A DNA stretch of 64,000 nt from Chloroflexota bacterium (lineage in GTDB: Bacteria > Chloroflexota > Limnocylindria > Limnocylindrales > CSP1-4), in NCBI GenBank assembly GCA_042408925.1, contig JBHOQO010000139.1, positions 3,655 to 67,654 on the forward strand, written 5' to 3'. Below the pieces are notes generated by a model. That model was not told the DNA's origin. It saw only the letters and a list, made by a program, of their open reading frames with translations, and did not search any database. This document shows positions 15,846 to 32,221 of this stretch, in pieces. Each line of letters begins with the position of its first letter. Within the stretch, counting starts at the first letter, position 1. A program made the translations under genes and the position numbers.

Positions 15846-17250
15846 CTACGCCTCGTCGGCGGCCAGGGACCGGGCGAGGAGGAGGAGGGTCGGTCGCTCG
15901 TTCAGCGACGGGTCGGCGACGACCCGCTCGAGGAGGGCGTCGAGGATTCGACCGAGGCGCGGCCCCGGCTCCACACCGAGCTCGGCGATGAGGTCGTCGC
16001 CGTCGACGGCGAGGTCGCGTCGGTCGAGGACGACCGGGCCGGCGAGGATCGCCGCGACGCGCGCCTCGAGCTCGGCCACGCCGGTCGCTTCGGGCGGCAG
16101 GCCGCTCCCGACGTTGTCGGCCCGTCGCAAGGCGAAGAGCTCGTCGAGGGCGTCGGGGCCGATCCGGGCGATGAAGCGTCGGACGGCGGCGTCGCTCCAG
16201 CTCCCCTCGTAGGAGAACATGTGGTGACGGACGAGGTGGGCGACCCGCTCGATCGTCTCGCGGGGCAGCCGGAGGCGCCGGAGGATCACCTCGCTCAGCT
16301 CCGCCCCCCGGAGCTCGTGGCCCGGGAAGTGCCCCTCGGCGGCCGTTCCGGGCTTGCCGACGTCGTGGAGGAGGGCAGCGAGCCGGACGATCGGCCGCTC
16401 GGCCGGTGCGGCATCGACGGTCCGGAGCGTGTGGGCCCAGAGGTCGTCGCCGGGAACCTTGGCCTGGGGGACCCCGCGCTGGGCGGCGAGCTCGGGGAGG
16501 AGGCGTTCGAGAAGGCCGGTCGCCTCGAGGAGCCCGAGGCCGATGGACGGCCGGCGGGCGGCGAGGAGCTTCGTCAGCTCGGCCGCGATCCGTTCGCCCG
16601 AAAGGTGGCGGACGAGGTCGGCCCGCTCCCGGATCGCCGCGAGCGTGGCCGGCTCGATCTCGAACTCGAGGACGGCGGCGAGGCGGATCGCCCGGACCAT
16701 CCGGAGGGCGTCCTCCCCGAAGCGGTCGAACGGGTTGCCGACGGCCCGGATCCGGCGGGCGGCGAGGTCGGCGAGGCCGCCGTGGGGGTCGACCAGGCGG
16801 ATCTCGGCGGGCGTGCCGTCGGGGCTCGGCTCGGCGCCCCAGGCGAGGGCGTTGATCGTGAAGTCGCGGCGGGCGAGGTCGTCCTCGATCCGCTCGCCAA
16901 ACTCGACCCGGTGGGGGCGGCGGAAGTCGGCGTACTCGTGCTCGGAGCGGAAGGTCGTGATCTCGTGGACGCCGTCCCGGCGGCGGACGCCGACGGTCCC
17001 GAACTGGTTCTCGTACGACGCGTCGGGGAAGACCGCCAGGACCTCCTCGGGGCGGGCGGCGGTGGCGAGGTCCCAGTCGGCGGCCGGGCGGTCGAGGAGG
17101 ACGTCGCGGAGCGAGCCGCCGACGAGGTAGGCGGCGTGGCCGGCGGCCCAGAGCCGGCGGAGGAGGTCGAGGACGGGTTCGGGGACGGCGGCGGCGATCT
17201 TCGCCCGGGCGGCCTCGGGATCGAGCGGCTCGGCGGGCGTGTTCGGCTCG
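15846..17250 (-). CDS. cca: CCA-adding enzyme / poly(A) polymerase-family tRNA nucleotidyltransferase with a C-terminal HD domain
   Basis: Pol-beta nucleotidyltransferase head GGSLRDVLLDRPAADWDLAT; RDFTINALAW; HD region HLVRHHMF...LRRADNVGSG. The start is approximate; the upstream part of the track ORF runs through a 17-bp tandem repeat and the HNH gene in another frame. Confidence 0.65.
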
Positions 17251-17254
17251 GTCG

Positions 17255-17345
17255 GCCTTCGTCCTGTGGTGGGCCCTCGCCCCGCGGTCGACCCTCGCCC
17301 CGCGGTCGACCCTCGCCGCGCGGTCGACCCTCGCCGCGCGGTCGA
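17255..17345. repeat. 17-bp tandem repeat (CGCGGTCGACCCTCGCC) x4
   Basis: Read directly: 'ccgcggtcgaccctcgccccgcggtcgaccctcgccgcgcggtcgaccctcgccgcgcggtcgac'. Confidence 0.8.
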
Positions 17346-17368
17346 CTCGTCCCGTCCCCGACCGGCGC

Positions 17369-17884
17369 TCAGCTCCGGCCGAGGAAGAGGTACGTCCGCC
17401 ACGCCTCGTTCCGCGAATCGGCGAGGTACGGCGTGAACAGCGAGTAGACGTCGCTCCTCGGCTCGAAGGGCTGCCGGATCAGGCGCATCCGAGCCTCCTC
17501 GAGGGTCTTGCCGCCCTTGCGGTGGTTGCAGCTCTTGCAGGCCGTCACGAGGTTCTCCCAGGTGTGGCCGCCGCCGCGGTGGCGGGGCACGACGTGATCG
17601 AGGGTCAAATCGTTCGTCTGGCGGCCGCAGTACTGACAGGTGTAGTGGTCGCGGGCGAAGACCTCGCGACGGGCGAGCCGGACCCGCGGTCGCGGTCGCC
17701 GGACGAGGTGCTGGAGGCGGATTACGGACGGCGCCCGGAACTCGGTCCGCGGCGTCCGGACGACCTGGTGGTCGTATTCGATGACCTCGGCCTTGGCGCC
17801 CAGGATGAGCCGGAACGCGCGCGGCAGGTTGCACACGTTCAGCGGCTCGTAGTTCTGGTTCAGCACGAGGACGACGCCGTCCAT
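17369..17884 (-). CDS. HNH endonuclease
   Basis: HNH motif YTCQYCGRQTNDLTLDHVVPRHRGGGHTWENLVTACKSCNHRKGG, preceded by the conserved LVLNQNYEPLNV N-terminus. I trimmed the start to the internal ATG (MDGVVLVL). Confidence 0.7.
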   Translation of the reverse strand: MDGVVLVLNQNYEPLNVCNLPRAFRLILGAKAEVIEYDHQVVRTPRTEFRAPSVIRLQHLVRRPRPRVRLARREVFARDHYTCQYCGRQTNDLTLDHVVPRHRGGGHTWENLVTACKSCNHRKGGKTLEEARMRLIRQPFEPRSDVYSLFTPYLADSRNEAWRTYLFLGRS

Positions 17885-17989
17885 GATGGAGGCGATGGTA
17901 ATCGAGCCGAGCCCGGCGTGTTGTCCGCGCGGGTGCCGGTCGTCCTCGGCCGCGTCCGCGGCCCCGCCCCGTGCCGGCCCGCCGCGCCC

Positions 17990-18295
17990 AGCCATTCGTC
18001 CGGTGCATGGAATGTCGTGCGGCACCGGCCGCGACGCGCCACCTATTCACCCGGCGCATCTCCGCCCCGGTCGGCGGCCCTCCGCCGCTCCGCGCATTCC
18101 CGAGGCGAATACAAGCCGGCCCGCAACCGGCCGCGACCGACCGTGCATTCTCCCGGCGAATGGGCGACCAGGCCGGCCGCCCATCGGCGCCCGTACATTC
18201 ACCGCCCGCATGATCGACCGGGGTCGGCCGCGTCGCATCACGCCAGCATGCGCCCGATGAATGTCCGACGATCTCCGGACGTCAGTCCCGGGCTC
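17990..18295. repeat. Six-unit tandem array with about 51-bp period; each unit carries an imperfect CATTC-N7-8-GAATG inverted repeat
   Basis: Units begin near 17993 (cattcgtccggtgcatggaatg), 18044 (tattcacccggcgcatc), 18096 (cattcccgaggcgaata), 18146 (cattctcccggcgaatg), 18196 (cattcaccgcccgcatga) and 18247 (catgcgcccgatgaatg). The array lies in the roughly 500-bp gap between the HNH gene's 5' end and the liu operon's 3' end. Confidence 0.7.
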
Positions 18296-18391: not shown

Positions 18392-19381
18392 TCAGTCGGG
18401 CCGAACCGGCCACCCGCCGGCCTGGCCCACCTTCGAGGCCAGCGGCCGCCCGAGCGCCCCGCTGATGAAGCGACCCGCCTCGAGGACCCCCGCCAGGTCC
18501 ACCCCGTGCTCCCAGCCCTCGCCGTCGAGCAGGTAGACGAGGTCCTCCGTCGCCAGGTTGCCGGCCGCGCCCGGGGCGTACGGGCAGCCGCCCGTCCCGC
18601 CGCTCGAGGCGTCGAAGCAGCGGACGCCCGCGGCCAGGCCCGCCACCACGTTCGCGAGCGCCGTCCCTCGAGTGTCGTGGAGGTGGAGGGCGAGCCGGTC
18701 GAGTCCGATCCCGGCGTCCACCGCCCGCCCGACGAGGTCGCCGACCTGGCTGGGCACCCCGACCCCGATCGTGTCGCCGAAGCAGACCTCGTCGACCCCG
18801 AGCTCGAGGAGGCGGGCCCCGACGGCGACCGCCCGGGCCGGGTCGACCCGCCCCTCGTACGGGCAGCCGAAGGCGGTCGAGACGTAGCCGCGGACCCACC
18901 AGCCCCGCTCGCGGGCCGCGGCGACGACCGGGCCGAACGTCGCCAGGCTCTCGGCGACGGTCATCCCGATGTTGTGGCGGGTGAAGGCGTCCGTGGCGGC
19001 CGTGAAGACCGCGATCGCCTCGATCCCGGCCCGTTCCGCCCGCTCCAGGCCCCGGAGGTTCGGGACGAGGGCGACGTAGCGGATCCCCGGGCGCCGCGGG
19101 AGCCCGGCCGCGACCGCCTCGGCGTCGGCGAGCTGGGGGACGGCGCGGGGCGAGACGAAGCTCGTCGCCTCGATCTCCCGGAGTCCGGCGGCGACGAGCA
19201 GCTCAAGGTACCGGAGCTTCGCCGCGGTCGGGATCGGGGTCGCCTCGTTCTGGAGGCCGTCGCGCGGCCCGACCTCGTAGATCCGGACCCGACGGTCCGC
19301 GGCCGCCGGCGGGTCGGCGCCCGGTTGCCGGGCGGTCGGGTCGGGCCCGGTCCCTTCGGCTCCGGCCCCGATCCCGCCCAC
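18392..19381 (-). CDS. Hydroxymethylglutaryl-CoA lyase
   Basis: VRIYEVGPRDGLQNE, TSFVSPRAVPQ, the HLHDTRGTALANV motif and C-terminal GGCPYAPGAAGN are characteristic of HMGL. The start may be internal. Confidence 0.75.
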   Translation of the reverse strand: MGGIGAGAEGTGPDPTARQPGADPPAAADRRVRIYEVGPRDGLQNEATPIPTAAKLRYLELLVAAGLREIEATSFVSPRAVPQLADAEAVAAGLPRRPGIRYVALVPNLRGLERAERAGIEAIAVFTAATDAFTRHNIGMTVAESLATFGPVVAAARERGWWVRGYVSTAFGCPYEGRVDPARAVAVGARLLELGVDEVCFGDTIGVGVPSQVGDLVGRAVDAGIGLDRLALHLHDTRGTALANVVAGLAAGVRCFDASSGGTGGCPYAPGAAGNLATEDLVYLLDGEGWEHGVDLAGVLEAGRFISGALGRPLASKVGQAGGWPVRPD

Positions 19382-19708: not shown

Positions 19709-21850
19709 TCAGGCCTCGATGAGGGCGATGAGGTCGCCCCGGGCGAGCTGGTCGCCGCGCCCCACGGCCAAGTCGACGACCCGGCCCGGCCCCGGAGCGG
19801 CGACGACGTGCTCCATCTTCATCGCCTCGAGGGTGACGATCGGGTCGCCGGCTTCGACGTGGTCCCCGACCGCGACGTGGACGACGCCGACGAGGCCCGG
19901 CATCGGCGCCTCCACGACCTGGGCGCCGCCGGCGTGGCCGCGCTCGGCCGTCCGGACCGCGGCCTCGACGTCGGGCGGTGGGGCGAGCCGGAAGGCGACC
20001 GAGCGGCCCGCAACGTCGACGTGGGCAACGAGTCCGTCGACGGCCGCGGCCGGGAGGGGCTCGCCCGCCACCGAGCGGTCGTCGGCCCCTCCACCCTCCG
20101 GGTCGAGGAGGACCGTTCGAGCGGTCCCGTCCTCGGCGACGAGTCGCAGGGACGCTCCGAACGGTCGCCAGCCGCCGCCCCACGGGTCGCCGCGCCGGGC
20201 TGCCTCGGCCTCGAGCGCGCCCCGCAGGGCCTCGCCGGCCGCCCGCCAGACCGCCTCGGCCTCGCCGGCCCTTCGAACCCGTTCGGCCCAGTCGTCCGGC
20301 GGCCAGATGGCGGCGAGCGTGTCGGTTCGGGCCAGCCCCTCGCGGACGACCGGCTGCCGAACGAGCCACCGGAGGAAGCGGAGGTTCGTGACGAGCCCGA
20401 GGAGGCGGGTCGCCTCGAGGGCCGCCGCCAGCCGATCGAGGGCGGCCTCGCGGTCGGGGCCGTGGGCGGCGATCTTGGCGAGGAGCGGGTCGAACCGTCC
20501 GCCCACGACCGAGCCGACCTCGACGCCCGCGTCGACCCGTATCCCCGGCCCCTCCGGCCAGGCGAGGTCGAGAATGCGACCCGTCGCCGGCAGGAAGCCC
20601 GCCTCGGCGTCCTCGGCGTAGAGGCGGACCTCGACGGCATGGCCGCCGGCCTCGAAGGCCCGAAGGACGTCGCCCTGGTCGAGCCCGAGCGGCTCGCCGG
20701 CGGCGACCCGGAGCTGGTCGGCGACGAGGTCGCGACCCGTGACCGCCTCGGTGACGGGGTGCTCGACCTGGAGGCGGGTGTTCATCTCGAGGAAGACGAA
20801 CCGGTTCGTCTCGTCGAGGAGGAACTCGCACGTTCCGGCTCCGACGTAGCCGACGGCCGACGCAAGCCGGAGGGCCGCCTCGCCGAGGGCCGCCCGCAGC
20901 TCCGGGGTCAGCCGCGGCGCCGGCGCCTCTTCGAGGATCTTCTGGTGGCGCCGCTGGAGCGAGCAGTCGCGCTCGCCCAGGTGGACGCCCCGACCGTGGG
21001 CATCGAAGAGGACCTGAACCTCGACGTGGCGAGGGTGCTCGAGGTAGCGCTCGAGGAGGAGGCGGTCGTCTCCGAAGGCCGCCCGGGCCTCCCGACGGGC
21101 CGCGGCGAGGACCGCTCCGAGACCCTCGAGGCTCCGGACGACCCGCATCCCCTTGCCGCCGCCGCCGGCCGCCGGCTTGACGATGAGCGGAGGGCCGAGT
21201 CGCTCGGCCGCGGCGAGGAGCGAGGCGTCGGATTGGTCGGCGGGGGCGTCGCCCTCGGCGACCGGGATTCCGAGGCGGCGGGCGAGCTCGCGGGCGCGGG
21301 CCTTGTCGCCCATCGCCTCGATCGCCTCGGGCGGCGGGCCGACCCAGCGGATCCCGGCGGCGAGGACGCGGCGGGCGAAGTCGGGATTCTCGGCGAGGAA
21401 GCCGTAGCCGGGGTGGAGGGCGTCGGCGCCGGCGGCGAGGGCGGCAACAACGACCTCCTCGGGGTCGAGGAGGTCGAGAGGTTCGGGCGATGCGGACGCG
21501 GGCAGGGCCGGCCGGCCGTCGTCGACGAGGGGAAGCACGGCTTCGATCCCGAGGCGGTGGCAGGTTCGGGCGATCCGGGCCGCGATCTCGCCCCGGTTCG
21601 CGACGAAGCAGCGGCGGATCGGGCGGGCGGGTGCCGTGGCCGTCGTCTGTGCGGCCCCACGAGCGGTCGATCCCGCAGCGCCGAGCGCGGCGAGGGCGGC
21701 GACGGGCACCCGCCACCGACCGCCGACCCGCCGGGCCGGGAGGCGGCCGGCAGCGATCCAGCGCTGGACGGTTCGGGTGCTCGTCCCCAGGCGGCGCGCC
21801 GCTTCGGACGGCGAGCACTCGAACCGATCGTCAGCCGGTCGCGCGGTCAT
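19709..21850 (-). CDS. Methylcrotonyl-CoA (acyl-CoA) carboxylase alpha subunit: biotin carboxylase plus BCCP, with an N-terminal excisionase/MerR-type HTH extension
   Basis: Biotin-carboxylase motifs: IRRCFVANRGEIAARI, the ATP-grasp fold, and C-terminal BCCP EAMKMEH. The first roughly 45 aa (RRLGTSTRTVQRWIAAGRLPARRVGGRWRVP) match HTH_17/excisionase-type DNA-binding helices. They sit in the same frame as the carboxylase with no intervening stop. Confidence 0.75.
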   Translation of the reverse strand: MTARPADDRFECSPSEAARRLGTSTRTVQRWIAAGRLPARRVGGRWRVPVAALAALGAAGSTARGAAQTTATAPARPIRRCFVANRGEIAARIARTCHRLGIEAVLPLVDDGRPALPASASPEPLDLLDPEEVVVAALAAGADALHPGYGFLAENPDFARRVLAAGIRWVGPPPEAIEAMGDKARARELARRLGIPVAEGDAPADQSDASLLAAAERLGPPLIVKPAAGGGGKGMRVVRSLEGLGAVLAAARREARAAFGDDRLLLERYLEHPRHVEVQVLFDAHGRGVHLGERDCSLQRRHQKILEEAPAPRLTPELRAALGEAALRLASAVGYVGAGTCEFLLDETNRFVFLEMNTRLQVEHPVTEAVTGRDLVADQLRVAAGEPLGLDQGDVLRAFEAGGHAVEVRLYAEDAEAGFLPATGRILDLAWPEGPGIRVDAGVEVGSVVGGRFDPLLAKIAAHGPDREAALDRLAAALEATRLLGLVTNLRFLRWLVRQPVVREGLARTDTLAAIWPPDDWAERVRRAGEAEAVWRAAGEALRGALEAEAARRGDPWGGGWRPFGASLRLVAEDGTARTVLLDPEGGGADDRSVAGEPLPAAAVDGLVAHVDVAGRSVAFRLAPPPDVEAAVRTAERGHAGGAQVVEAPMPGLVGVVHVAVGDHVEAGDPIVTLEAMKMEHVVAAPGPGRVVDLAVGRGDQLARGDLIALIEA

Positions 21851-22027
21851 GATCGCGACCCGGAGCCTGCCGGCGGCCCGATCACGCGCGTCATTCCGGG
21901 CTCCGTCGCTCGCTGCGCCGCCGCCGCCGGCTGGGGCACCAACGCTGGCTGCCGCTCGGTCATGGCTGTCGCGATTGTCGCGTTTGACGCGCCCGCTCGC
22001 AAGCCCGGCCGACGCTTCGAGCGAGGG

Positions 22028-22924
22028 TCAGTCGGTCGGCGCGCCGTCGTCGGGCGCCCAGCTCGGGCGGCGACGATCGAGGAACGCCCGGATCCCCTCC
22101 CGCGCCTCGGCGCTCGCCCGCTGCCGGGCGAGGACCCGGGCCGTGTGCCAGCGGGCCGAGCCGTAGGAGAGCCCGCGGACCTCCCTGACGATCGCCTTCG
22201 CCGCCCGGACGGCCGTGGGCCCGCCGGCCAGGATGTCGGCGACGACGGCGTCGACGGCCGTGTCGAGGGCCGCCGCTCCCTCGACGACCTCGTGGACGAG
22301 GCCGATCCGCTGGGCGCGGAGGGCATCGAAGCGCCGCCCGGTGACGAAGAGGGCTCGGGCCTCGCTCTCGCCGAGCTTGGCGACGACGAACGGCGCGATG
22401 ACAGCCGGCAGCAGCCCGAGCCGGACCTCGCTGAACCCGAACCGCGTCCCGCTCTCGGCGACGACGACGTCGGCGACGGCGCAGAGGCCGACGCCGCCCC
22501 CGAGGGCCGCGCCGTGGACCCGCGCCACGACCGGCACCGGGCAGGCGTCGATCGCCTCGAACATTTCGGCGATGGCGAGGGCGTCCTGCTCGTTCGCCTC
22601 GAGGTCGAGCTCGGCCGCCGCGAGCATCCCGCGGAGGTCGGCTCCCGCCGAGAAGACCGGGCCGTCGGCGGCGAGGACGACGGCCCGCAGCTCGCTCGGC
22701 GCCTCGCGGGCCAGGGCCGCGAAGGTGGACCGAAGGGCCCCGACGAGCTCGGCGTCGAAGGCGTTCCGGGTCTCGGGGCGGGCGAGGACGACCCGGGCGA
22801 CGCTGCCGCGGGGGCCGGTCCGCTCGACGCGAAGGGCAGGGCTCACCGCCCGGATCGTATCAGCCACGGGTCGGCCGCTCGGTGCCGTGCCGGCCCCTCG
22901 GTGCCGTGCCGGCCCCTCGGCCAT
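22028..22924 (-). CDS. Enoyl-CoA hydratase/isomerase (probable methylglutaconyl-CoA hydratase)
   Basis: Crotonase fold motifs: VVLARPETRNAF, AVVLAADGPVFSAGADL, HGAALGGGVGLCAVADVVVA and FGFSEVRLGLLP. The start is uncertain (ATG at about 22924 or GTG at about 22846). Confidence 0.7.
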   Translation of the reverse strand: MAEGPARHRGAGTAPSGRPVADTIRAVSPALRVERTGPRGSVARVVLARPETRNAFDAELVGALRSTFAALAREAPSELRAVVLAADGPVFSAGADLRGMLAAAELDLEANEQDALAIAEMFEAIDACPVPVVARVHGAALGGGVGLCAVADVVVAESGTRFGFSEVRLGLLPAVIAPFVVAKLGESEARALFVTGRRFDALRAQRIGLVHEVVEGAAALDTAVDAVVADILAGGPTAVRAAKAIVREVRGLSYGSARWHTARVLARQRASAEAREGIRAFLDRRRPSWAPDDGAPTD

Positions 22925-23147: not shown

Positions 23148-23165
23148 TCAGCTACGCTCCCACGC

Positions 23166-23399
23166 ATGCAGGTGAACATCCACGAAGCGAAGACGCACCT
23201 CTCACGGCTCGTCGATCGAGCGGCCGCCGGCGAGGACATCGTGATCGCCAGAGCCGGCCGGCCGGTCGCCCGCCTCGTCCGCTTCGAGCCGCCGCGTGAG
23301 GCCCGACGCCTCGGTATCTGGCGGGGTCAGGTCCGGATCGGCCCCGACTTCGACGCCGTCGATGACGCCCTCGCCGACCTCTTCGAAGGCGAGCGGTGA
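23166..23399 (+). CDS. Type II antitoxin, Phd/YefM family
   Basis: MQVNIHEAKTHLSRLVDRAAAGEDIVIARAGRPVARLV is a canonical Phd/YefM N-terminus. Its stop overlaps the toxin's GTG start (GTGA). Confidence 0.8.
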   Translation: MQVNIHEAKTHLSRLVDRAAAGEDIVIARAGRPVARLVRFEPPREARRLGIWRGQVRIGPDFDAVDDALADLFEGER

Positions 23400-23773
23400 G
23401 GCTCCTCCTCGACACGCACGCGTTTCTCTGGGCACTCGCCCTGCCGGATGAACTGCGACTCGAGGCGAGACGGGCGATCGAGGATCCCCGGAACGACGTC
23501 TTCGTCAGTGCCGCATCTGCCTGGGAGATCGCGATCAAGCGCGCCCTCGGACGCCTGGAGGCGCCCGACGATCTCGGTGATGCCATCGGAGCGGTCGGCT
23601 TCGTCGAGCTGCCGATCACGATCGGGCACGCGCTCGCCGTCGAGCGGCTGGCCCGCCACCATCGCGATCCCTTCGACCGGATGCTCATCGCCCAGGCCCT
23701 CGTCGAGGGCTTGATCATCGTCACCCGCGACGCTCGCTTCGAGCCGTACGGCGTGCCCGTCCTCCGTGCTTGA
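23396..23773 (+). CDS. vapC: Type II toxin VapC (PIN domain ribonuclease)
   Basis: MRLLLDTHAFLWAL..., with acidic residues in PIN positions (D6, E, D near the C-terminus: IVTRDARF). Confidence 0.8.
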   Translation: MRLLLDTHAFLWALALPDELRLEARRAIEDPRNDVFVSAASAWEIAIKRALGRLEAPDDLGDAIGAVGFVELPITIGHALAVERLARHHRDPFDRMLIAQALVEGLIIVTRDARFEPYGVPVLRA

Positions 23774-23821: not shown

Positions 23822-24000
23822 GTGCCCTCGGATGTTCGGCCGCGCTGCGGCGGCCCGCCCGAGTCGTTCGGCTACGGCTGCGCCCGTGGGTATCCCCTGC
23901 GAGTCGCGGCCGCCCGCCGGAGCCGGTCCATGACCGCCCGCCCGAGTCGTTCGGCTATGGCTGCCCCGGTGGGTGCCCCCTCCGAGCGGCGGCCGCCCGC
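23822..24000. repeat. Tandem duplication (about 90 bp x2) that copies the last roughly 24 codons plus stop region of tsaC/sua5
   Basis: Units at about 23822-23911 and about 23912-24000 are nearly identical: 'gcccgagtcgttcggcta[c/t]ggctgc[g/c]cc[c/g]gtgggt[at/gc]cccct[gc/c]gag[t/c][c/g]gcggccgcccgccggagccggtccatgaccgcccgcccgag'. The reverse complement encodes LGRAVMDRLRRAAA(A/T)RRG(H/Y)P. Confidence 0.7.
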
Positions 24001-25007
24001 CGGAGCCGGTCCATGACCGCCCGCCCGAGGCCGACCTCGGGGACGGGCTGGGCGACGATCCGATCGAGCTCGGCCGCGTCGAGGGCGTGGAGGGCGACGA
24101 AGAGGCGAGCTGCCGCCTCGACTGGGTCGCCGGTCGGGCTCAGGACTTCGACGGCGACGAAGGGACCGCCGACGGCCTCGGCGATGCGCCGTCCTTCGGC
24201 GTCGGCGGCGAGGAGGCCGAGTCGCTCGCCGGGCTTCGCCCGCGGCGTCGCGTCGGGCGCGAGCAGGACCAGCGTCGCCCGCGGGGCATAGTGGCCCGCT
24301 GCCCGGCCGGGGGAGAGGGATCGGGCCTCGTGCTCGGGCGGGATCTCGACCGGGCCGACGACCGCTTCGAGTGCCTCGAGGGGCGTGCCGCCCGGCCGGA
24401 GGAGGACGGCCCGGTTGGGGGCGAGGAGGAGGACGGTCGATTCGACGCCGATCCGGCATGGCCCGCCGTCGAGGATGAGGCCGACCCGGCCGTCGAGCTG
24501 GCGGGCGACGTGCTCGGCCCGGGTCGGGCTGACCCGGCCGAAGCGGTTCGCCGAGGGGGCGGCAATCGGGACGCCGGCGGCCCGGATGAGGGCGAGGGCC
24601 ACCGGGTGGTCGGGGATCCGGACCCCGACGGTCTCCAGGCCGGCGGTCACGACGCCCGGCACGACCCTCCGCTTCGGAACGACGAGGGTGAGGGGGCCCG
24701 GCCAGAAGCGCTGGGCGAGGGCTCGAAGGCGGGGGTCGGCGAGGGCTTCGGGCCGGACGACGGTTGCGAGGTCGGCGGGCTCGGCGAGGTGGACGATGAG
24801 GGGATCGAAGGCGGGGCGTTCCTTGATCTCGAAGATCCGGGCTGCGGCGAGCGGGTCGAGGGCGTTCGCCCCGAGACCGTAGACGGTCTCGGTCGGGAAG
24901 GCGACCGGCTCGCCGGCCCGGATCCTGGCGGCCGCCTCGGCGATCGCCGCGGGGTCGTCGCCGGGCAGGATCCGGGGTCGGGTCGAGGCGGGCTCGTCGG
25001 TCGTCAC
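23955..25007 (-). CDS. tsaC: L-threonylcarbamoyladenylate synthase (YrdC domain plus Sua5 C-terminal domain)
   Basis: YrdC motifs VAFPTETVYGLGANAL, IFEIKERPAFDPLIVH and SANRFG; the Sua5 C-terminal domain follows. Confidence 0.8.
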   Translation of the reverse strand: MTTDEPASTRPRILPGDDPAAIAEAAARIRAGEPVAFPTETVYGLGANALDPLAAARIFEIKERPAFDPLIVHLAEPADLATVVRPEALADPRLRALAQRFWPGPLTLVVPKRRVVPGVVTAGLETVGVRIPDHPVALALIRAAGVPIAAPSANRFGRVSPTRAEHVARQLDGRVGLILDGGPCRIGVESTVLLLAPNRAVLLRPGGTPLEALEAVVGPVEIPPEHEARSLSPGRAAGHYAPRATLVLLAPDATPRAKPGERLGLLAADAEGRRIAEAVGGPFVAVEVLSPTGDPVEAAARLFVALHALDAAELDRIVAQPVPEVGLGRAVMDRLRRAAAARRGHPPGQP

Positions 25008-26893: not shown

Positions 26894-27063
26894 GCGCCGA
26901 GCATACGGAGCAAACGGGCGCCGTGCCCGACCGGGGTGGTCGGCTGCCTGCTCCTGCTATCGTCGATGGGACTTCGGCCCGGAAGGAGGAGGACGGTCTC
27001 GCGGATGGCACCGAACGGAGCGTCATCGAGCGCCAGCAACCGGCCGTGCGCCGACCGGCGGCG

Positions 27064-27870
27064 ATGATCACCGGCATCGACCACCTCGTCATCGCCGTCG
27101 GCGATCTCGATGAAGCGGCCGCAGCCGTCGCCCGGAGTGTCGGCCTGGCGGTCGTGCCGGGCGGTACACATCCCGACCACGGGACGGCGAACCGCCTCGT
27201 CTGGCTCGGCGACACGTACCTCGAGCTCGTCGCGGTCGTCGATCCCGACCGAGCCTGGCACTCCTGGTTCGGTCGCCTCGTCCTCGACCGGCTCGCGGCG
27301 GGTGGCGGTCTGGCGGCCCTCTGCCTCGCTTCGGATGACCTGGCCGCCGACATCGCCGCGGCCCGCGGACGGGGCGTCGACGTCGCCGGTCCGTTCCCGG
27401 GGGAGCGGCGTCGCCCGGACGGACGGGTCGTCCGCTGGCGGCTGGCACTCCCCGACCCTCTCGGGGTCGATGCCGCGCCCTTTCTCATCGAGCACGATCC
27501 GACGGCCGCCGAGTGGACGTCGATCGAGCGAGCCGAGCGGGCCGCGTTCGTCCACCCGGTCGGGGGGCCGGTTCGCCTCGAGCTCGTGGAGCTCCCGCTC
27601 GGTGACGTCCGACGAACCCAGGACCGCTACCTCCGGACGTGGGGCCTCCTCGCCCGCCCGTCGCTGGCGGGAGGAGGGGCACGGGATGTCAGCGTCGGCC
27701 GGCAGATCATCCGGCTCCGCCGTCGGGTCGGGGCCGAGTCGGAGCTGCCGACCGTCGGTCTCGCCGCACTGGCGCCACCGGGCTGGTCCCGAGCCGGTCA
27801 GCTACCCGGCACCGACGCTGCCGAGGTCCTCAGCCTCGAGTTCCGGTGGCGGCCGGCGGGCAGCGCCTGA
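27064..27870 (+). CDS. VOC-family (glyoxalase/bleomycin-resistance/dioxygenase fold) protein
   Basis: MITGIDHLVIAVGDLDEAAAAVARSVGLAVVPGGTHPDHGTANRLVWLGDTYLELVAVV shows the paired beta-alpha-beta-beta-beta module pattern typical of VOC proteins. I trimmed the start to the internal ATG. Confidence 0.55.
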   Translation: MITGIDHLVIAVGDLDEAAAAVARSVGLAVVPGGTHPDHGTANRLVWLGDTYLELVAVVDPDRAWHSWFGRLVLDRLAAGGGLAALCLASDDLAADIAAARGRGVDVAGPFPGERRRPDGRVVRWRLALPDPLGVDAAPFLIEHDPTAAEWTSIERAERAAFVHPVGGPVRLELVELPLGDVRRTQDRYLRTWGLLARPSLAGGGARDVSVGRQIIRLRRRVGAESELPTVGLAALAPPGWSRAGQLPGTDAAEVLSLEFRWRPAGSA

Positions 27871-30580: not shown

Positions 30581-32221
30581 CTACATCCGGAAGACCCCGA
30601 AGCGCGTCTCCCGGATCGGGGCCTGGAGAGCGGCCTCGATCCCCATGGCCAGGACCCGCCGCGTGTCGAGCGGGTCGATGACCCCGTCGTCCCAGAGCCG
30701 GGCTGTTGCGTAGTACGGGTTGCCCTCCCGCTCGTACGTCTCGAGGATCGGTGCCTCGAAGGCCGCCCGCTCCTCCTCGGACGTCCACCGCCCACCCGGC
30801 AGCGACGCCTCCCGGACCGTCGAGAGGACCCGGGCTGCCTGGGCGCCGCCCATGACGCTGATCCGGGCGTTCGGCCAGGTCCAGAGGAAGCGCGGCGAGT
30901 ACGCCCGCCCGGCCATGGCGTAGTTCCCGGCCCCGAAGCTCCCCCCGACGATGACCGTGAACTTCGGGACCTCGGCGCAGGCGACGGCGGTCACCATCTT
31001 CGCCCCGTCCTTCGCGATCCCGCCGGCCTCGTAGTCGCGGCCGACCATGAAGCCGGTGATGTTCTGGAGGAAGACGAGGGGGATCTGCCGCTGGGCGGCG
31101 AGCTCGATGAAGTGGGCACCTTTGAGCGCCGACTGGGAGAAGAGGACGCCGTTGTTCGCCAGGATCGCGACCGGATAGCCCTCGAGGTGGGCGAAGCCGC
31201 AGACGAGGGTCTCGCCGTAGAGCGGCTTGAACTCGTGGAAACGGGAGCCGTCGACGAGGCGGGCGATGACCTCCCGAATGTCGAGGGAGCGACGGAGGTC
31301 GGTCGGGATCGCGGCGTAGAGGTGGGCGACGCCGGCCCTCGGGTCGCCCTCGGCCGGGACGGCCGGCGGTTCGGGCGGCCGGCGTTCCCAGGGCGGTTCG
31401 GGCGGGCGGCGGGCGAGGTGGCGAACGATGTCGCGCCCGAGGGCGATGGCGTGCTCGTCGTCGAGGGCTTCGTGGTCGACGACGCCCGAGCGGCGGGCGT
31501 GGACCTCCGCTCCGCCCAGTTCCTCGGCGCTCACCTCCTCGCCGGTTGCGGCCTTCACGAGCGGCGGCCCGCCGAGGAAGATCGTCCCGGTCCCGCGGAC
31601 GATGACGGTCTCGTCGCTCATCGCCGGGACGTAGGCCCCGCCGGCAGTGGAACTCCCCATGACGAGGGCGATCTGGGGGATCCCGGCCGCCGACATCCGG
31701 GCCTGGTTGTAGAAGATCCGCCCGAAGTGGTCGCGGTCGGGGAAGACGTCGGCCTGGAGGGGGAGGTAGGCGCCGCCCGAATCGACGAGGTAGACGCACG
31801 GGAGCCGGTTCTCGAGGGCGATCTCCTGGGCCCGGAGGTGCTTCTTCACCGTCATCGGGTAGTAGGTCCCGCCCTTCACGGTGGCGTCGTTGGCGACGAC
31901 GACGCAGAGGGTCCCCTCGATCCGGCCGATCCCGGTGACGATCCCCGCCCCGGGGGCCTCGTCGTCGTACATGCCGGTGGCGGCGAGGGGCGAGAGCTCG
32001 AGGAAGGCGCTCCCGGGGTCGAGGAGGCGCTCGATCCGTTCGCGGACCGGGAGCTTGCCGCGCTCGCGGTGGCGAGCGATCGCCCGCTCGTCGCCGGCGG
32101 CGCCTCGCTCGACGAGGGCGCGCTGGCGGGCGCGGAGGTCGGCGACGAGGGCGCGCATCGCCGCCTCGTTCGTCCGGGCCTCGGGGTCGGCGGGATCGAG
32201 GCGGCTCCGCAGGACGGCCAT
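30581..32221 (-). CDS. Methylcrotonyl-CoA carboxylase beta subunit (carboxyltransferase)
   Basis: Full-length match to the acyl-CoA carboxyltransferase beta pattern: [58 protein letters not shown] and [14 protein letters not shown]. Confidence 0.85.

Follow-up and report, generated by a model that had tools for sequence, protein, structure and literature searches.

An excisionase/BldC-type winged helix fused to a methylcrotonyl-CoA carboxylase alpha subunit in Chloroflexota, with a candidate operator at its own promoter

We analyzed a 64,000-nt stretch of DNA from a Chloroflexota bacterium (GCA_042408925.1, contig JBHOQO010000139.1), referred to here as the window, on which all coordinates are based. 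The gene of interest, an ORF at 19709..21850 on the minus strand, encodes 713 aa from an ATG start, and its product is, as judged from domain profiles and alignments, a 3-methylcrotonyl-CoA carboxylase (MCC) alpha subunit (LiuD/MccA) with a tethered N-terminal winged helix-turn-helix (HTH) of the BldC/Xis type. New here are a 17-nt element, O1, present at this gene in all HTH-bearing loci, and an intragenic copy of it, O2.

The fusion gene and its N-terminal domain

The gene and its modules are the following.
19709..21850 (-): fusion gene, comprising an HTH_17 winged helix, a flexible tether and MCC alpha (biotin carboxylase (BC), central region, plus biotin carboxyl carrier protein (BCCP)); from the ORF, Pfam, an alignment to 3u9s and an AlphaFold2 (AF2) model
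21686..21814 (-): HTH_17/excisionase-type winged HTH, aa 13-55; from Pfam, TIGR01764, AF2, Foldseek and invariant columns
21620..21685 (-): low-complexity Ala/Thr tether, aa 56-77, linking the HTH to BC; predicted local distance difference test score (pLDDT) below 50 at residues 60-72
20312..21619 (-): BC (ATP-grasp) module, aa 78-513, beginning with the canonical IRRCFVANRGEIA; PF00289, PF02786 and PF02785
19718..19918 (-): BCCP (biotinyl) domain, aa 645-711, with the biotinylation motif EAMKME (K678); PF00364 (Biotin_lipoyl), 58.7 bits

A preliminary description of this DNA had proposed an N-terminal HTH_17/excisionase domain joined through an Ala/Thr linker to a complete BC plus BCCP with no intervening stop, and each of these features is borne out. 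PF12728 (HTH_17) matches aa 13-55 with 49.0 bits against a gathering cutoff of 27 (54.8 bits for the first 67 aa alone), and NCBIfam TIGR01764 ("excise"), with a cutoff of 28.8, gives 43.9 bits. The predicted domain consists of a helix at residues 14-21, a recognition helix at 25-33, a beta-hairpin wing at 40-49 and then a short C-terminal helix; residues 27-48 of the fusion protein read TVQRWIAAGRLPARRVGGRWRV. By these profile scores the match is well beyond chance, and the domain was found again in about 200 independent homologs. The tether (GAAGSTARGAAQTTATAPARP) is rich in Ala and Thr, no stop codon lies between HTH and BC, and among orthologs the tether varies in sequence and runs to about 15-40 aa. 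Pfam places Biotin_carb_N at residues 78-177, CPSase_L_D2 (ATP-grasp) at 182-389 and Biotin_carb_C at 407-513, and A676-M677-K678-M679 is invariant in the full-length ortholog alignment. When queried without the HTH and linker, the alpha part aligned to the Pseudomonas aeruginosa MCC alpha subunit (3u9s) with 445 bits over residues 1-629 of the query. We assign the subunit to the MCC type because of its BC/central/BCCP layout, its MCC-type beta partner, and the neighboring hydratase and lyase genes described below.

The AF2 model of the full-length protein has a mean pLDDT of 89, with residues 11-55 at about 92, and the domain modeled in isolation (pLDDT 92.7) contains helices at 7-14, 18-27 and 43-48 and strands at 33-35 and 38-42. 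Foldseek against the Protein Data Bank (PDB) ranked the mycobacteriophage Pukovnik Xis (4j2n) first, with a template modeling (TM) score of 0.88 and 41% identity, followed by DNA-bound BldC (TM 0.81-0.83, root-mean-square deviation 1.2 Å, 36% identity) and then by RacA, RdfS and N-domains of the MerR family; Xis, BldC, RacA and RdfS together span TM 0.75-0.88. Sequence searches concur, as the closest PDB sequences are Xis, RacA and BldC, with E = 1e-6 for Xis using the family profile. BldC contacts DNA through Arg30, which is bidentate to the guanine of a YpG step, and through Trp31, Lys26 and a basic wing (PMC5859096). In a pairwise alignment, BldC K26, R30, W31 and the basic wing align to the family-invariant R26, R30, W31 and RRVGGRWR. 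The predicted fold and these contact residues suggest that the HTH is competent for DNA binding.

The MerR Pfam model PF00376 (MerR_1) narrowly misses its cutoff of 28.2, with 28.1 bits for the full protein, and covers profile positions 2-36 of 69; PF13411 gives a partial match below its cutoff. No MerR coiled coil or effector domain was found in the protein; the wing is followed by a short helix, then by disordered residues 60-72 and then by BC. Judged from profiles and model, the HTH is not a classical MerR or LiuR domain, because the features that define one were looked for and are not there. The window lineage also has an N-terminal extension (residues 1-14, 21809-21850 (-)), MTARPADDRFECSP, which in a phmmer search resembles the BldC N-terminus, MTARTPDAEPLLTP, while typical members begin MxxELSPSE; this likeness is probably due to chance.

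The comparative evidence comes from metagenome-assembled genomes (MAGs) and metagenome sequences, and few of the homologs are named (Candidatus Limnocylindria/Limnocylindrales or Chloroflexota MAGs). The preliminary description had suggested checking orthologs for the same fusion, and PF12728 occurs together with BC domains in 117 of the 120 best homologs (60-65% identity). A metagenome scan seeded with the HTH alone retrieved 80 loci, and in 74 of the 74 that are not cut by a contig end the HTH runs in frame into BC; the carboxylase subunits carrying it in these judgeable loci are 660-740 aa long. Within the HTH, of roughly 45 residues, an alignment of 26 ortholog N-termini has 18 columns that are invariant and 8 that nearly are; the canonical BC start comes after the linker. 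Mean column identity is 81% in the HTH versus 63% over the whole protein, so that by this measure purifying selection is stronger on the HTH than on the enzyme. On comparative grounds, the fusion is thus ancestral and conserved in this ortholog group within Limnocylindria-like Chloroflexota. A profile search of genome contigs with the alignment of HTH and BC start was dominated by the generic ANRGEIA pattern, and no HTH-covering locus was among the matches listed.

In a library of representatives at 50% identity, all HTH matches of high identity occupy residues ~4-46 of the respective protein. Outside the fusion, the HTH's nearest relatives in this library (P0147-P0159 and others) are proteins of 250-620 aa with 4-7 tandem HTH_17 copies, and more distant relatives have 2-8 tandem copies. 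Such tandem HTH_17 proteins are covalent arrays of the domain type that BldC assembles non-covalently.

It had also been proposed that the true start lies downstream and that the HTH is a relic. In this case the HTH would be a misannotation, and translation would begin at the GTG of codon 48 to give an ordinary MCC alpha subunit. Two close relatives do without the HTH, the ancestral start is out of frame in the window (see below), no clear Shine-Dalgarno sequence precedes ATG 21850, and composition by itself does not decide the matter; GC at third codon positions (GC3) and frame statistics over the HTH region are too noisy at such a length, so that comparative evidence was used for coding status. 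Against a relic, the window retains 18 of 18 family-invariant HTH residues, and these columns are invariant at about 60% ortholog identity. An exact match to the window protein was looked for in a contig index and none was found, but an independently sequenced sister protein of at least 90% identity has the same open frame and start and an identical N-terminus, and the fusion is conserved across the roughly 200 independent sequences. The in-frame starts in the window are codon 1 (ATG 21850), codon 48 and codon 105, and no start codon lies further upstream in this frame in the window. Codon 48, the sole internal start before ANRGEIA, is a GTG within the wing strand and would leave a 30-aa tail for which no function is known, and a start at codon 105 would remove the essential ANRGEIA motif. 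Since the HTH is better conserved than the enzyme, we reject the proposal of a relic, which we regard as extremely unlikely.

A conserved promoter element, its intragenic copy and a proposed autorepression

The spacers between the stop codon of the upstream enoyl-CoA hydratase (ECH) gene and the fusion start were extracted from all loci. Upstream of the ATG, 84 of 84 HTH-bearing loci have ATGCGACAATCGCGACA, a near-invariant element of 17 nt that consists of two direct YGCGACA units with a 9-nt period. With its flanks, (A)TGCGACAATCGCGAC(A), this element (O1) ends 0-6 nt before the ATG, in spacers from 35 bp to 2 kb alike. A position weight matrix (PWM) of 17 nt was built from 78 unique sequences, and it gives the sites upstream of fusion genes a median of 29 bits (range 19.8-33.3). 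Across 639 kb of the relatives' loci, the only other recurrent matrix matches lie within the fusion gene. The loci listed in the genome-contig search above served as a negative control of 1.12 Mb around BC genes without the HTH (44 loci above 62% GC), and no O1 site of 20 bits or more was found in them.

In the 78 unique loci, a TTGC(C) of moderate conservation also lies exactly 17 nt upstream of GACAAT, GACGAT or GACACT. In this -10 hexamer the A at position 2 and the T at position 6 are invariant, and a TG precedes it in most loci. Based on this cross-locus conservation, the O1 region would be a sigma70-type extended -10 promoter whose mRNA is leaderless or has a leader of 3-4 nt. Contacts of sigma70 with the -10 region are not expected to constrain the G, C, G and C of GCGAC or the downstream CGCGAC; nevertheless, these four bases and the whole downstream CGCGAC are invariant in 75-78 of the 78 sequences, far above the conservation of the -35 element.

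The corresponding features of the window are listed here.
21967..21991 (-): candidate operator O1, CGCGTCA-AA-CGCGACA-AT-CGCGACA, three direct units of 9-nt period; PWM 31.0 bits
21997..22002 (-): -35-like hexamer TTGCGA, 17 nt upstream of the -10 GACAAT; read from the sequence
21847..21963 (-): lineage-specific 38-codon upstream ORF (MTERQPALV...GSRS*), whose TGA overlaps ATG 21850 (ATGA)

The family-wide 17-nt element corresponds to 21967-21983 in the window, where it overlaps the -10 GACAAT (21974-21979) and the predicted transcription start, which falls at the ATG adjacent to O1 or no more than 4 nt from it, at about 21963-21967; the window has a third unit in register, and the element of the relatives has two. 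The sequence spanning O1 (21960-21995) is CGCGTCAAACGCGACAATCGCGACA. The ancestral ATG adjacent to O1 (21963) lies 113 nt upstream of ATG 21850 and still begins M-T-E, and an extra stretch of approximately 134 nt shifts it out of the HTH frame. A sister locus of at least 90% identity (L166, ~627-725) shares this layout, its upstream ORF starting with GTG and having an in-frame deletion of 18 nt, which indicates that the upstream ORF is a real feature of this lineage. Expression of the fusion probably relies on translational coupling through the ATGA overlap, and the arrangement suggests a leaderless upstream ORF with coupling that arose by an insertion of ~134 nt.

Most fusion genes (L083-L165) contain, on the opposite strand at +105 to +135, a second, inverted copy of O1; the DNA there encodes the peptide RVAxDAxDAF at the end of the HTH. 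This copy, O2, reads CGT GTC GCG xxT GAC GCG wTw GAC GCG in the coding direction and CGCGTC(N3)CGCGTCA(N2)CGCGACA on the other strand, that is, two or three inverted units in a block of approximately 27 nt within the coding sequence of the C-terminal helix of the HTH. The spacing between O1 and O2 is 127-129 bp in 67 of 75 loci. The last two units of O2 (ACGCGT twice) are able to form a 6-bp hairpin.

Codon usage within O2 departs from that of the genes around it, which have a GC3 of 0.87. The values in the array, and elsewhere in these genes where given, are as follows.
TTA (Leu): 16/36 in the array, 0.1% elsewhere
TTG (Leu): 15/36 in the array, 2.8% elsewhere
ATT (Ile): 18/21 in the array, 5% elsewhere
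CGT (Arg47): 65/74 in the array
T at the third position of array index 7: 73/74, irrespective of the residue (S, F, I, N or T)

The codons TTA, ATT, TTT, TCT and CGT found in O2 are otherwise nearly absent. Third-position entropy is 0-0.65 bits in the array versus 1.5-1.9 bits at the invariant L-P-A-R-R-V-G-G-R just upstream, and the rare codons, by this comparison across orthologs, preserve O2. The copy retains the unit bases without the A and T that define the -10 hexamer of O1, so that conservation of the units is separable from promoter function. An antisense promoter at O2 was considered and ruled out for the same missing bases. The window itself lacks O2: at 21686-21715 the peptide is RVPVAALAAL, written with common codons.

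The two closest relatives of the window protein (L001 and L002, with 79% and 77% identity and the same synteny) have genuinely lost the HTH (L001 5831-6001, L002 5957-6001). In one of them the gap between ECH and BC is just 43 bp, and in the other a 170-bp gap contains no HTH-like frame. Their upstream regions score -13.5 and -15.8 bits with the O1 matrix. By eye, L001 has a -35/-10-like arrangement (TTGCGT, ~17-18 nt, CACAAT) and a short N-terminal tail, and the invariant unit bases are gone. The HTH and O1 thus appear to have been lost together in these two HTH-less syntenic orthologs, as a pair of HTH and operator would predict. Because O2 is missing in the window and the loss is complete in its nearest relatives, we suggest that the regulatory device is being remodeled or eroded in this sub-clade, even though the window keeps every invariant HTH residue. 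The HTH-less sisters and the remodeled window lineage amount to natural knock-outs, which help to date and dissect the system.

We think it probable, with moderate confidence, that the enzyme is an autorepressing trigger enzyme, in which the predicted binding of its HTH to O1 at its own promoter represses its own gene. The HTHs tethered to the enzyme would bind the YGCGACA units head-to-tail, as BldC does on its 9-bp repeats, and their occupancy would cover the -10 hexamer and start site and so repress the alpha gene, the small ORF downstream of it and the 3-hydroxy-3-methylglutaryl-CoA (HMG-CoA) lyase gene. A single winged HTH (wHTH) would bind weakly, so that occupancy would be set by the number of HTHs held together, and in this way the cell would sense how much of the alpha oligomer or the alpha6beta6 holoenzyme is present or how far it is assembled, perhaps with modulation by substrate. 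As an inverted array downstream, O2 could allow a loop or a roadblock. The preliminary description had raised a self-regulating enzyme, and comparison lends this part of it strong support, in that a conserved operator-like element lies on the gene's own promoter and is gone in HTH-less orthologs; a role of the domain as a liu-wide regulator of the LiuR type is not supported, as discussed below.

One form of this mechanism can be put more concretely, although we consider it speculative and on balance unlikely. Here the repressor would be the alpha6beta6 holoenzyme, with three tethered HTHs at each end, one alpha trimer bound to O1 and the opposite, symmetry-related trimer to O2 to form a DNA loop. 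If this were true, transcription of the alpha/lyase operon would report the amount, assembly, or substrate-driven conformation or filament state of the holoenzyme, and a metabolic megacomplex would act as a multivalent, loop-forming transcription factor with one operator inside the codons of its own DNA-binding domain.

Several points weigh against autorepression. The case for it is wholly a comparative one drawn from MAGs and metagenomes. A generic scan of 21600-22200 for sigma70 promoters and terminators called nothing, the promoter matching 8 of 12 positions against a cutoff of 9. Promoter function must explain part of the conservation of O1 (the TG extension, the -10 A and T, and the start-site CA), and selection of another kind could act on a GC-rich discriminator. 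The CGCG/ACGCGT units are self-complementary in sequence, which makes direct and inverted, and DNA and RNA, readings hard to separate. The co-loss sample is small (n=2), and the HTH was lost from two close relatives without obvious harm, so that its function is dispensable there. In the window, which has no O2 and a displaced promoter, regulation may be weakened or different. The last of these points comes from RNA folding: the O1-O2 duplex has a mean energy of -23.2 kcal/mol versus -16.9 for shuffled O1.

This last value bears on a reading in which the conserved sequences form an RNA element, with O1 pairing with O2 in transcripts reading through from ECH, or with a local hairpin at O2, such that the start is occluded or the ribosome pauses, and in which the HTH has another role and does not bind them. 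In several minimum free energy (MFE) folds, CGCGACAC is paired with GTGTCGCG or ACGCGU/ACGCGU forms a local hairpin, and constraint at synonymous sites would suit an RNA element and a DNA element equally. The pairing itself, however, does not covary. Position 12 of O1 varies (A, C or T) and its partner stays T, leaving mismatches in 25 of 74 loci; 64 of 74 have an A.A clash at position 3; the spacer positions are mostly mismatched, and there are just single stray double changes. The CGT T and the T at index 7 are explained by the identity of the CGCGACA unit and not by pairing. From the -35/-10 geometry, the mRNA would start at the ATG or beside it, which would leave O1 untranscribed, and the loss of O1 together with the HTH is unexpected for an RNA element independent of the HTH. 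Since unit identity is conserved and complementarity is not, we prefer two copies of a protein-binding site, and we consider an RNA element very unlikely.

A different possibility is that the HTH binds DNA without being a dedicated regulator, for example as a nucleoid tether, as an architectural protein like RacA or Xis, or through contacts with proteins or filaments, and that O1 is a strong lineage-specific promoter. The closest solved relatives of the domain do include Xis, RacA and terminase small subunits, MCCs of other organisms are reported to form filaments, and the HTH is dispensable in two relatives. A promoter alone would leave unexplained the invariance at bases that sigma70 would not be expected to contact, as well as an inverted O2 that lacks the bases defining a -10 hexamer and is yet kept by rare codons. 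The invariant bases are also gone in the HTH-less L001 despite its -35/-10-like arrangement, and the element is unique to the fusion gene within the 639 kb and 1.12 Mb scanned. For these reasons we hold a non-regulatory HTH to be quite unlikely and retain autorepression as the favored interpretation.

Gene neighborhood and the reach of the element

The neighboring genes that bear on the pathway are the following.
22028..~22840 (-): ECH gene (methylglutaconyl-CoA hydratase-like, LiuC position), start codon uncertain; PF00378 (ECH_1), 145.8 bits
19401..19631 (-): conserved small ORF, 76 aa, between the alpha gene and the HMG-CoA lyase gene; tblastn matches in most loci, and alignment
18392..19381 (-): HMG-CoA lyase gene (LiuE position); PF00682 (HMGL-like), and NF004283 with 375.7 bits against a cutoff of 246
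30581..32221 (-): MCC-type carboxyltransferase (CT) beta subunit gene (LiuB position); PF01039, 508.6 bits

The flanking ECH and HMG-CoA lyase genes named in the preliminary description are confirmed by these matches, and the carboxylase beta subunit that it placed about 9 kb away is found at 8.7 kb and is of the MCC type. Its best PDB match is the P. aeruginosa MCC beta subunit (3u9r, 761 bits), followed by Mycobacterium tuberculosis AccD1 (745), human MCCB (735), a geranyl-CoA carboxylase (GCC) beta subunit (455) and propionyl-CoA carboxylase (PCC) beta (~250 bits). In relatives the gene order is carboxyltransferase - (MOSC) - ECH - HTH-BC-BCCP - small ORF - HMG-CoA lyase - HNH - CCA-adding enzyme, with the beta gene adjacent in the cluster; the ECH gene is syntenic in nearly all of their loci, and the order ECH - alpha - small ORF - HMG-CoA lyase is kept in the window and in more than 60 loci. 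The beta gene is distant in the window because other genes have been inserted between CT and ECH, namely a PIN toxin with an antitoxin-sized ORF upstream, Sua5/YrdC, and a glyoxalase-like gene (23150-23773 (+), 23955-25007 (-), 26923-27870 (+)). L001 has two PIN/PhdYeFM pairs at the position corresponding to this insertion.

These neighbors bear on whether the HTH is a LiuR-like regulator of a whole leucine-catabolic regulon that includes the beta subunit, the hydratase, isovaleryl-CoA dehydrogenase and others. In Proteobacteria, LiuR is a MerR-like regulator of isoleucine, leucine and valine (ILV) degradation genes (PMC7238569), the HTH has weak similarity to the MerR family, and no transcription-factor gene adjoins the cluster in the window or in the relatives' loci, so that no other regulator stands beside it. 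The search for further sites covered the 64-kb window and the relatives' 10-kb flanks, and more distant targets may exist. Within this scope the element is found upstream of neither the ECH nor the CT gene. The window has no second O1 site (next best 8.9 bits), and the element does not occur in the regions upstream of 22924 and 32221 that had been proposed as targets; its one strong site lies at 21967-21991, between the ECH and fusion genes. Isovaleryl-CoA dehydrogenase was not found among the window ORFs scanned. The earlier suggestion of a MerR regulator of the LiuR type further conflicts with the lack of a dimerization and effector module (no coiled coil or effector domain, and a MerR score of 28.1 versus 28.2), and with a site made of direct repeats over the -10 hexamer with a 17-nt spacer rather than a palindrome in a 19-20-nt spacer. 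We therefore give little credence to a regulon-wide role.

The small ORF probably shares a transcription unit with the alpha-subunit gene. In relatives it is 59-88 aa long and always lies in the interval between alpha and lyase (L085:12023-12235, L083:12154-12333, L084:12031-12219, L002:8172-8438), with the core TRExLLxxHAxARRRRNAAxLGSxE..A..EIARIEVxIAEIER..DPPR. It also occurs in an HTH-less relative and is thus independent of the HTH. Neither the small ORF nor the upstream ORF has a Pfam match. The small ORF could encode an accessory (epsilon-like) subunit or an assembly factor.

Beyond the pathway genes, an HNH-domain gene (17369-18025 (-)) and a gene of the CCA-adding enzyme/poly(A) polymerase family (15846-~17400 (-)) always lie 3' of the HMG-CoA lyase gene, as also in L002 and L083-L085, and a MOSC-domain gene is usually found between the carboxyltransferase and hydratase genes. 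The ORF that holds the CCA-adding enzyme (15846-18059 (-)) has a low-complexity upstream part with tandem peptide repeats (…STARRGSTARRGSTAGRGSTAGRG…) and overlaps the HNH gene in another frame. Because of this overlap, the CCA gene probably starts well downstream of the ATG that was listed.

Comparison with known systems

Few enzymes double as transcription factors; those that do, BirA and PutA among them, are textbook cases of direct metabolic feedback. Bifunctional enzyme-regulators are therefore a known kind, and N-terminal HTH_17 domains on larger proteins are known in general; to our knowledge, no biotin-dependent carboxylase with a dedicated DNA-binding domain is known. The searchable literature yielded no description of such a carboxylase or of its operator. 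A "helix-turn-helix" in a paper on the Legionella MCC is a structural motif of the beta subunit and is irrelevant to the fusion. Public annotations already hold the fusion as "excisionase family DNA binding protein" or as "biotin carboxylase N-terminal domain-containing protein", and both names fail to convey its nature.

The fusion is conserved across a largely uncultured lineage from soil and freshwater. Its predicted operator is unusually clean, with one site per genome neighborhood, at the gene's own promoter, plus a coding copy kept by rare codons, and the hypothesis can be tested directly with a 30-bp duplex and a 60-residue peptide. It would also offer a natural case of how a monomeric winged helix of the BldC/Xis type gains affinity and signal dependence when made multivalent on an oligomeric enzyme.

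The phage and integrative and conjugative element (ICE) excisionases (Pukovnik Xis, 4j2n; RdfS, 8dgl) are the best matches in sequence and fold. Oligomerization on DNA is known for members of the excisionase family (PMC11963761). They differ from the fusion in context, as no recombinase, att site or mobile element was found here and the cluster is a conserved chromosomal catabolic one.

LiuR shares with the fusion the leucine/ILV pathway and the superfamily of MerR-like wHTHs. It is a protein of its own, a full-length dimeric MerR regulator, and its site is a palindromic "ILV box" found upstream of several operons (PMC7238569). In contrast, the domain described here is fused to an enzyme, lacks the dimerization and effector module, and has a candidate direct-repeat site at one promoter only.

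Acetyl-CoA carboxylase of Escherichia coli (AccD) offers a parallel in that a component of a biotin-dependent carboxylase feeds back on its own subunits through nucleic-acid binding, with a proposed coupling to metabolic state. The E. coli carboxyltransferase represses translation of its own mRNAs through a zinc finger, and acetyl-CoA relieves the repression (PMC2831308). That system is translational and uses a zinc ribbon on the CT beta subunit and RNA of the coding region, whereas the candidate mechanism here would be transcriptional and would use a wHTH on the BC-BCCP alpha subunit and a defined promoter element.

BirA (the biotin ligase-repressor, which likewise belongs to biotin biology), PutA (a proline dehydrogenase with a ribbon-helix-helix (RHH) domain) and the riboflavin kinase-regulator RbkR all have catalytic and DNA-binding modules on one polypeptide, as the fusion does. 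We use the trigger-enzyme concept as in PMC5397151, on RbkR. The fusion differs from these proteins in its enzyme class and in having an HTH that is Xis/BldC-like and not a BirA wHTH, an RHH or a MarR-like domain. Its host enzyme is also a large alpha6beta6 oligomer, so that DNA binding would be multivalent.

BldC, a Streptomyces developmental regulator (6ama/6amk), is the system that the fusion most likely resembles at the level of DNA. Its protomers bind 9-bp direct-repeat units head-to-tail by means of the wHTH alone (PMC5859096). Both domains are minimal winged HTHs without a coiled coil, with equivalents of the conserved Arg30 and Trp31 and a basic wing. The BldC target consists of direct repeats of 9-bp period with an A/T patch and a G/C contact per unit, and the candidate site here has a like architecture, with two units (three in the window) that are partly self-complementary. 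BldC, however, is a free-standing protein of 68 aa with a large regulon, and the domain here is the N-terminus of an enzyme of about 700 aa with its own promoter as the apparent single target. The O1 unit, (A/T)(A/T)-YGCGACA, differs from the BldC consensus AATTxxxx(C), with AT + CGCGACA here versus AATTxxxxC in BldC, and oligomerization here may come from the enzyme and not from wHTH-wHTH contacts. As it is not free-standing and its unit sequence differs, the fusion is not a BldC-family protein in the strict sense. By analogy, it would most likely work like BldC at the level of DNA and like BirA and PutA at the level of the system.

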